A DNA stretch of 64,000 nucleotides from Escherichia phage LF82-1, in sequence record PV648359, one strand, 5' to 3'. The notes below the pieces were generated by a model. That model did not search any database and was not told the DNA's origin. It saw only the letters and a program-made list of their open reading frames with translations. Shown piece after piece: positions 9,263-9,603 of the stretch (its first letter is position 1; every line of letters starts with the position of its first letter). Position numbers and translations under genes: made by a program.

Positions 9263-9281
9263 GACCAGGCGGCACCTGGTC
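9263..9281 (-). terminator. hairpin (GACCAGG-N5-CCTGGTC) at the 3' end of nrdH
   Basis: 7-bp GC-rich stem overlapping the nrdH stop codon, followed by a U-rich stretch. Confidence 0.4.
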
Positions 9282-9603
9282 AATCTTCTATGATATCAGA
9301 GTCGTATCCTAATGAAATCAAGGACTTTTTAAACTCTGCAATATTCTTTTGTTTCTTATCATTTAAAAATATGACAGGATAACGAATATTAAGTGAAGTG
9401 AATCCTGCACGTTTAGCAAGAGATACGATTAAAGGACGGTCATATTCAATCTTACCATTATTAGTGAGGACTTTATAAAATGTATAAGGAGCATTGAGCT
9501 CCTTTAAAAGTTTTGTAACAGTATAACATCCTGGACAACGTCCAACTTCTTCAGGGATGCCATAAATTTCAATCTTGTTCTTTAAGTTCGAGTTTTGTTC
9601 CAC
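9280..9603 (-). CDS. nrdH: glutaredoxin-like protein NrdH; start codon non-canonical (candidate GTG at 9603)
   Basis: CPGC redox motif (…IYGIPEEVGRCPGCYT…); no in-frame ATG upstream of the motif except far inside the upstream ORF; sits next to nrdG/nrdD. Confidence 0.6.
   Translation of the reverse strand: MEQNSNLKNKIEIYGIPEEVGRCPGCYTVTKLLKELNAPYTFYKVLTNNGKIEYDRPLIVSLAKRAGFTSLNIRYPVIFLNDKKQKNIAEFKKSLISLGYDSDIIED

Follow-up and report, generated by a model that had tools for sequence, protein, structure and literature searches.

The CPGC glutaredoxin gene nrdH of Escherichia phage LF82-1 is most probably (with a probability that we put at about 0.85) a functional gene that starts at the GTG codon at positions 9603 to 9601, driven by the Shine-Dalgarno (SD) sequence AAGGA at 9618 to 9614, and this start would be a fixed feature of a phage clade in which the ancestral ATG has been lost. 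The window, i.e., the whole 64,000-nucleotide stretch of sequence record PV648359 that was analyzed, carries nrdH on its minus strand, as it does all features below unless marked otherwise. An earlier note on this DNA had pointed to an nrdH-like gene without a canonical ATG start and left both start-codon drift and a frameshifted pseudogene as explanations. The GTG start is already known: the T4 reference genome has it, as do RB69 and a record that is identical to the window over its first 50 kb; as the public annotations of T4 and of an LF82 phage already record it, nrdH is in this respect an ordinary gene.

The first 50 kb of the window match positions 106000 to 155999 of PV648360.1 (Escherichia phage LF82-2, an RB69-like Mosigvirus) base for base, and that record annotates a glutaredoxin CDS at exactly 9280..9603 of the window, i.e., from the GTG. 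The region from 9150 to 9950 matches eleven Escherichia phage LF82-series genomes at 100% identity and RB69 (genus Mosigvirus) at 97.6%. Upstream of nrdH lie nrdD (12500 to 10683), nrdG (10686 to 10216), gene 55.8 (10104 to 9889), and a gene of 105 amino acids (aa) like RB69ORF082c (9886 to 9569; phrog_2749), whose stop codon is the TGA at 9571 to 9569. The nrdH CDS itself (T4 gene 55.7 family) runs from the GTG to the TGA at 9282 to 9280, as both the open reading frame (ORF) and the PV648360.1 annotation have it, and is followed by gene 55.6 (9114 to 8932). The order nrdD-nrdG-55.8-(ORF082c)-nrdH-55.6 is the synteny expected of the T4-type NrdH family. A terminator-like hairpin, GACCAGG-TGCCG-CCTGGTC (9281 to 9263), with a T-rich run (the whole element spanning 9281 to 9253), begins within the nrdH stop codon and scores as a terminator on both strands. 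The 165-nucleotide (nt) intergenic gap before 55.6 holds a promoter-like site, TTTACA-16-TAAGAT with a TG upstream (9143 to 9170, minus strand), and an Rfam scan of 8900 to 10300 returned nothing relevant.

The start region reads as follows. The GTG at 9603 to 9601 precedes the upstream TGA, giving an overlap of exactly 35 nt (9603 to 9569), just as the earlier note had stated. Codons 2 to 10 (EQNSNLKNK, 9600 to 9574) precede the glutaredoxin fold as an N-terminal extension whose length varies between genera. Codon 11 is an in-frame ATT (Ile11, 9573 to 9571) whose last base is the first base of the upstream TGA; a second in-frame ATT follows at 9567 to 9565, and the CPGC redox motif, both cysteines of which are invariant in the family alignment, lies at 9537 to 9526. 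The statement that no in-frame ATG occurs between the upstream stop and the redox motif holds if the stop is the TGA of the upstream gene. Read literally it fails, since the stop that closes the nrdH frame is a TAG at 9735 to 9733, and the 150-codon ORF that is open from 9732 to 9280 has an ATG at its codon 11 (9702 to 9700), deep in the upstream gene and not a start. An ATG in a third frame, also described before, is found at 9563 to 9561, where it opens a 19-codon ORF. It is made by the nrdH codons TAT-GGC (Tyr-Gly) and arises wherever these read TAT-GGN; it is absent in relatives that have TAC for Tyr (locus L005, Sf23). Both the 150-codon ORF and this out-of-frame ATG are reading-frame artifacts.

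Annotation, SD energy, and conservation of the G-T-G triplet agree on the GTG at 9603, which had been named first among the likeliest starts. It is conserved in relatives, and the homologous GTG is the T4 reference start; it is likewise the annotated start in RB69, Mizar, Sf21, RZ, and UP19, the Mizar record marking AGGA as ribosome-binding site and the Sf21 record carrying the remark "alternate start codon GTG." The AAGGA lies 10 nt upstream of the GTG, within the Tyr-Gln-Gly codons of the upstream gene. Its predicted duplex with the 16S rRNA 3' end amounts to -5.4 kcal/mol for the GTG, within the -2.4 to -7.0 kcal/mol of neighboring genes, compared with -0.9 kcal/mol at both ATT codons and +0.8 kcal/mol at the ATG at 9702. 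Across the GTG clade, the duplex ranges from -5.4 to -8.7 kcal/mol with spacers of 5 to 9 nt counted from the duplex end, and the SD position is constant in every lineage that carries the upstream gene. Against the GTG, the 10-nt spacer of LF82-1 is among the longest that are usual, and the SD is predicted to be partly base paired (probability of being unpaired, about 0.3).

The substitution pattern indicates that nrdH coding begins no further upstream than the GTG. In the 132 nt that precede this codon, comparison with Sf21-type phages gives 16 synonymous to 2 nonsynonymous differences in the frame of the upstream gene, versus 1 to 17 in the nrdH frame; hence, the 150-codon ORF, with its ATG at 9702, is open by chance. 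Moreover, the GTG spans the upstream codons NGT-GGN, in which NGT is CGT (Arg) in Mosigvirus, Tequatrovirus, and Kanagawavirus, TGT (Cys) in Gaprivervirus and Dhakavirus, and AGT (Ser) in Pectobacterium phage PM2. The residue of the upstream gene thus varies while G-T-G is invariant, a signature of constraint from the other frame, that of nrdH. In phages that carry the upstream gene, conservation of the SD and of the GTG is partly dependent evidence because the conserved Y-Q-G and x-G codons of that gene also constrain these positions.

We infer that ribosomes initiate at the GTG at 9603 in LF82-1, with the putative SD and the start codon both embedded in the 3' end of the upstream ORF (codons for Tyr-Gln-Gly ... 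Arg-Gly). This would yield a protein of 107 aa, with a 10-residue N-terminal tail and then the conserved I-E-I-Y-G-I-P...CPGC core. In the searchable literature, we found neither direct N-terminal or initiation-site data on NrdH of any phage nor anything on T4 initiation-site profiling. GTG is the commonest alternative start codon of bacteria, and other non-AUG starts (GUG, UUG) of T4-like phages and Escherichia coli likewise combine a near-cognate codon with an SD. Non-ATG starts are not rare in the LF82-1 window itself: 4 of the 104 annotated CDS in its first 50 kb (PV648360.1) have one, namely, 3 GTG and 1 TTG. The TTG is the annotated start of the baseplate wedge subunit gene (45800 to 46375, plus strand; identical GenBank record), and GTG starts are also listed for a phosphatase (26197 to 25730) and a membrane protein (32641 to 32294).

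Nucleotide alignment of nrdH with related phages, the check that the earlier note had proposed, found the GTG and its SD conserved in the clade. The start comparison covered 27 GenBank and IMG/VR loci and then 56 more IMG/VR loci, resulting in 55 unique contexts: 27 with ATG, 23 with GTG, 4 with TTG (a tally that includes Sf23, which still carries the conserved GTG), and 1 with none (PM2). In Tequatrovirus (T4, T2, Sf21), Mosigvirus, Gaprivervirus, Dhakavirus, and Kanagawavirus, no ATG adjoins the core, and the conserved I-E-I/V-Y-G-I-P follows an in-frame GTG at a distance of 5 to 10 codons, with AAGGA, AAGGAG, or AAGGTGG ahead of that GTG; the GTG with its SD is conserved in these five genera and in PM2. 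Between the GTG and the core lie 4 further codons in T4, 6 in Gaprivervirus, Dhakavirus, and Kanagawavirus, and 9 in LF82-1, always in frame. More distant T4-like phages, including Jiaodavirus, Slopekvirus, Pseudotevenvirus, Krischvirus, and Lazarusvirus, have an ATG 1 to 2 codons before the core (M-K/N-I/V-E-I-Y-G), Gelderlandvirus has it four codons before, and Karamvirus has it seven codons before. A few lineages (the IMG/VR contigs L040/L041 and L083) use TTG instead of ATG or GTG. In L040 and L041, two in-frame TTG codons precede the core by two and five codons, within what is apparently the 3' end of an ORF082c-like gene, and L083 has its TTG at the ancestral ATG position, behind GAGAGGTGA.

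The ancestral ATG aligns to codon 9 of the window gene (AAC), two codons upstream of the ATT, which encodes the first core residue. A neighbor-joining tree, rough and not robust with about 97 residues, groups the GTG users in one subtree, with all deep branches using ATG. From these alignments, the GTG is probably a derived but fixed start, the ancestral ATG having been lost in a clade within the Tevenvirinae. Start-codon drift, one of the two explanations first offered, is therefore borne out in the evolutionary sense: distant T4-like phages have the ATG before the core, and the clade now uses an upstream GTG. Two annotations deviate from the conserved codon. In Sf23 (L015, 513 to 824), a Ser5Leu change creates an in-frame TTG from which the CDS is annotated, and in Enterobacter phage Q7622 (Kanagawavirus; L019, 465 to 806), the annotators placed the start at an in-frame ATG that precedes the conserved GTG by six codons. 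The strong SD of Kanagawavirus, AAGGTGG, serves the GTG and not the annotated ATG.

One alternative would be that translation starts partly or entirely at the rare AUU at 9573 to 9571, e.g., by reinitiation at the overlapping UGA, yielding a 97-aa product that begins at the fold. AUU starts are known from E. coli infC and T4 gene 26*. In every lineage, the upstream gene terminates in a stop that overlaps the ATT or lies 1 nt ahead of it, and the ATT is invariant in the GTG clade whereas ATG-start relatives vary there (ATA, ATC, GTN), which could hint at a second role; in addition, AUU can act as a bacterial start codon (background in PMC5499595), which counts for this alternative. However, the adjacency is a by-product of the K-I-E codons: the nrdH codons xxT-AAR-ATT-GAR (x-Lys-Ile-Glu) read TAA and TGA out of frame, so that the ORF of the upstream gene cannot extend further. 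Moreover, the AUU is without an SD (-0.9 versus -5.4 kcal/mol at the GTG), T4 has no gene ending beside its ATT and yet keeps the GTG with its SD, and the ancestral ATG aligns two codons upstream and not to the ATT. The ATT start suggested in the earlier note thus finds no backing in these data, and we regard it as quite unlikely. A longer product, either of 140 aa from the ATG at 9702 or from a frameshift in the overlap that would fuse the upstream product to NrdH, is very unlikely. The nrdH frame is indeed open for 43 codons upstream of the GTG, with the ATG at 9702, and PM2 carries both genes in one frame. Nevertheless, the stretch upstream is noncoding in the nrdH frame (the 1:17 ratio given above), the ATG at 9702 is without an SD, and T4 and Gaprivervirus have an in-frame stop shortly (two or three codons) before the GTG; inspection of the overlap in the window also revealed no obvious slippery or +1 shift-prone sequence. 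As for a fusion, PM2 is the sole single-piece match among 1397 records, and 543 records carry both genes adjacent to each other in two frames.

In Pectobacterium phage PM2 (L084, 304 to 903; NC_028940, 41901 to 42500), the two genes are deposited as one 199-aa "glutaredoxin," and a tblastn search of the phage collection showed this single-frame layout to be the only case among the 1397 matching phage records. One A added to its A7 run, making A8, restores the canonical two-gene layout with the same SD and GTG and with the upstream stop 1 nt before the ATT. The likeliest account of the PM2 fusion is a homopolymer miscount or a recent mutation. A protein-database search with the fusion protein gave no matches.

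Loss of the start codon from a frameshifted or decaying pseudogene would explain why no ATG lies near the start, and the RB69 reference record might seem to illustrate such decay, since a 2-nt deletion shortens its homologue to 90 aa. This explanation is contradicted for the window on several grounds and retains a next to negligible probability. The 107-codon ORF is intact with its CxxC, homologues occur in 1351 phage records (tblastn), and the T4 ortholog has a protein-level class in a proteome. The supplements of PMC9697503 place T4 NrdH (P07077) in the class "early RNA / late protein," which implies that the protein itself was detected. Purifying selection on the gene is strong: dN/dS of the 97-codon core is 0.08 to 0.10 in comparisons with T4, Sf21, and Sf23 (0.09 for T4), and the close relatives L003 and L005 differ by synonymous changes only, with an identical NrdH protein. 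In RB69 (AY303349 / NC_004928; L001, 1848 to 2120), the lesion consists of the 2-nt deletion plus a substitution, AAACAAAAGAATATT of the window being replaced by AAACAAA--GATATT, and the 90-aa truncation is either a real mutation of the laboratory strain or a mistake in the old sequence. That the missing ATG of the window itself stems from faulty sequencing or assembly is no more credible than the pseudogene. Eleven LF82-series genomes, each deposited independently, share the identical arrangement, as do hundreds of further genomes and 6 metagenome contigs, and the same GTG context recurs in RB69, Mizar, Sf21, and others. The contigs came from a metagenome scan in which NNN replaced the start codon between its flanks; it gave GTG in 6/6 contigs, with no start-codon variant.

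With the GTG at 9603 as the preferred start, the encoded protein has 86% identity to T4 and T2 NrdH over residues 8 to 107. The family alignment has invariant Y, G, I, C, C, and P residues, and the protein matches PHROG 22 (phrog_22, thioredoxin domain) with an E value of 1.2e-15; the Pfam Glutaredoxin family PF00462 scores 21.0 bits, below its 22.9 cutoff. A profile of 14 family members matched the T4 NrdC structures 1AAZ/1ABA with an E value of 6e-10 and the bacterial NrdH structure 4FIW with an E value of 0.79, and NCBIfam gave no NrdH TIGR02194 match at an E value of ≤0.1, only a 13.6-bit YruB-family match. Judged by these profile comparisons, the protein is likely a paralog of the T4 NrdC glutaredoxin that falls outside the bacterial NrdH-redoxin family. 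The label "nrdH-like" therefore stands in T4 nomenclature, in which nrdH is the T4 gene name, and does not extend to bacterial NrdH-redoxin, since TIGR02194 is not matched and T4 NrdC is closest. The NrdC match (1ABA/1AAZ) starts at query residue 12 and structure residue 3; residues 1 to 10 thus form a tail before the fold. A single-sequence AlphaFold2 model of NrdH had a mean pLDDT of 47, too low for use.

The gene would thus be read as encoding a small CxxC redoxin of glutaredoxin fold behind the anaerobic reductase genes nrdD-nrdG, and its position together with the GenBank note "has glutaredoxin activity" suggests that it may act as thiol reductant for the anaerobic reductase system; no published NrdH biochemistry was found in the searchable literature. 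Its nearest known counterpart is T4 nrdH (gene 55.7; NP_049686, P07077), an ortholog with the same CPGC, located between nrdD-nrdG-55.8 and 55.6, with a GTG start and AAGGA and with a comparable terminator hairpin after the gene. T4 differs in that it is without the RB69ORF082c-like gene, so that its GTG lies 2 nt past the 55.8 stop and not 35 nt inside a gene. An in-frame TAA stands three codons ahead of this GTG and AAGGA 6 nt ahead, and the T4 ORF contains no other NTG start codon before the core. The annotated N terminus is VKQNKIEVYGIP, and the T4 tail is 5 residues shorter (VKQNK, compared with VEQNSNLKNK in LF82-1).

The closest solved structure by family profile is that of T4 NrdC ("T4 thioredoxin"; 1AAZ, 1ABA, 1DE1), which shares a glutaredoxin fold starting x-V/I-Y-G and a CxxC at the same place, the start of helix 1. 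It is nevertheless a distant paralog (single-sequence match E value, 0.01) with CVYC and not CPGC, and its ATG lies two residues before the fold, without an N-terminal tail; the nrdC gene lies elsewhere in the window (14642 to 14379). Bacterial NrdH-redoxin (E. coli NrdH; TIGR02194; 4FIW) is also a small protein of CxxC glutaredoxin-like fold, named after its link to ribonucleotide reductase. Its motif is C-V/M-Q-C, compared with CPGC here, and its genomic partners are class Ib nrdI-nrdE-nrdF, compared with class III nrdD and nrdG here.

The upstream 105-aa gene matched phrog_2749 alone, with no Pfam, NCBIfam, or PDB match. Across six genera, the RB69ORF082c-like gene has 24 invariant residues, among them a single Cys and several Trp, Phe, and Gly. 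In our sample, it is present exactly in the genera with a GTG or TTG nrdH, with the exception of T4 and T2, in which the gene is absent and the GTG is kept. It ends in ...KEQD* in the window and RB69, and in ...KE* two codons earlier in Mizar and Sf21 (L003, L014; 9569 to 9577). The later stop in the window is due to codon 9 of nrdH being AAC and not AAT, a change that turns TAA into CAA and is synonymous in nrdH.

A hairpin hiding the SD was also considered, as UCCUCCUU in the Pro-Pro codons at 9638 to 9631 (minus strand) of the upstream gene can pair with AAGGA. It was rejected as a conserved element because the partner is not conserved (CCG-CCA in Sf21) and because the predicted structures differ between genera. 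UCCUCCUU resembles the 16S anti-Shine-Dalgarno sequence; given the lack of conservation in Sf21-type phages, its pairing with AAGGA is probably incidental.

An unlikely extension of the GTG reading would be that, in phages with the ORF082c-like gene, nrdH expression is tied to that gene, with a minor AUU isoform and with the two proteins paired in anaerobic deoxynucleotide synthesis. Ribosomes translating the upstream gene might open the partly paired SD, reinitiation at the AUU next to the upstream stop might give the minor isoform, and the PM2 record with both genes fused in frame might hint at a functional pair of NrdH and the upstream gene product.

For the phage, the weaker GTG start and the overlap may result in a modest level of NrdH that is linked to translation of the upstream gene. 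For the family, the comparative point is that the start moved from an ATG to an upstream GTG or TTG where the overlapping gene sits upstream and that T4 kept the GTG without it.
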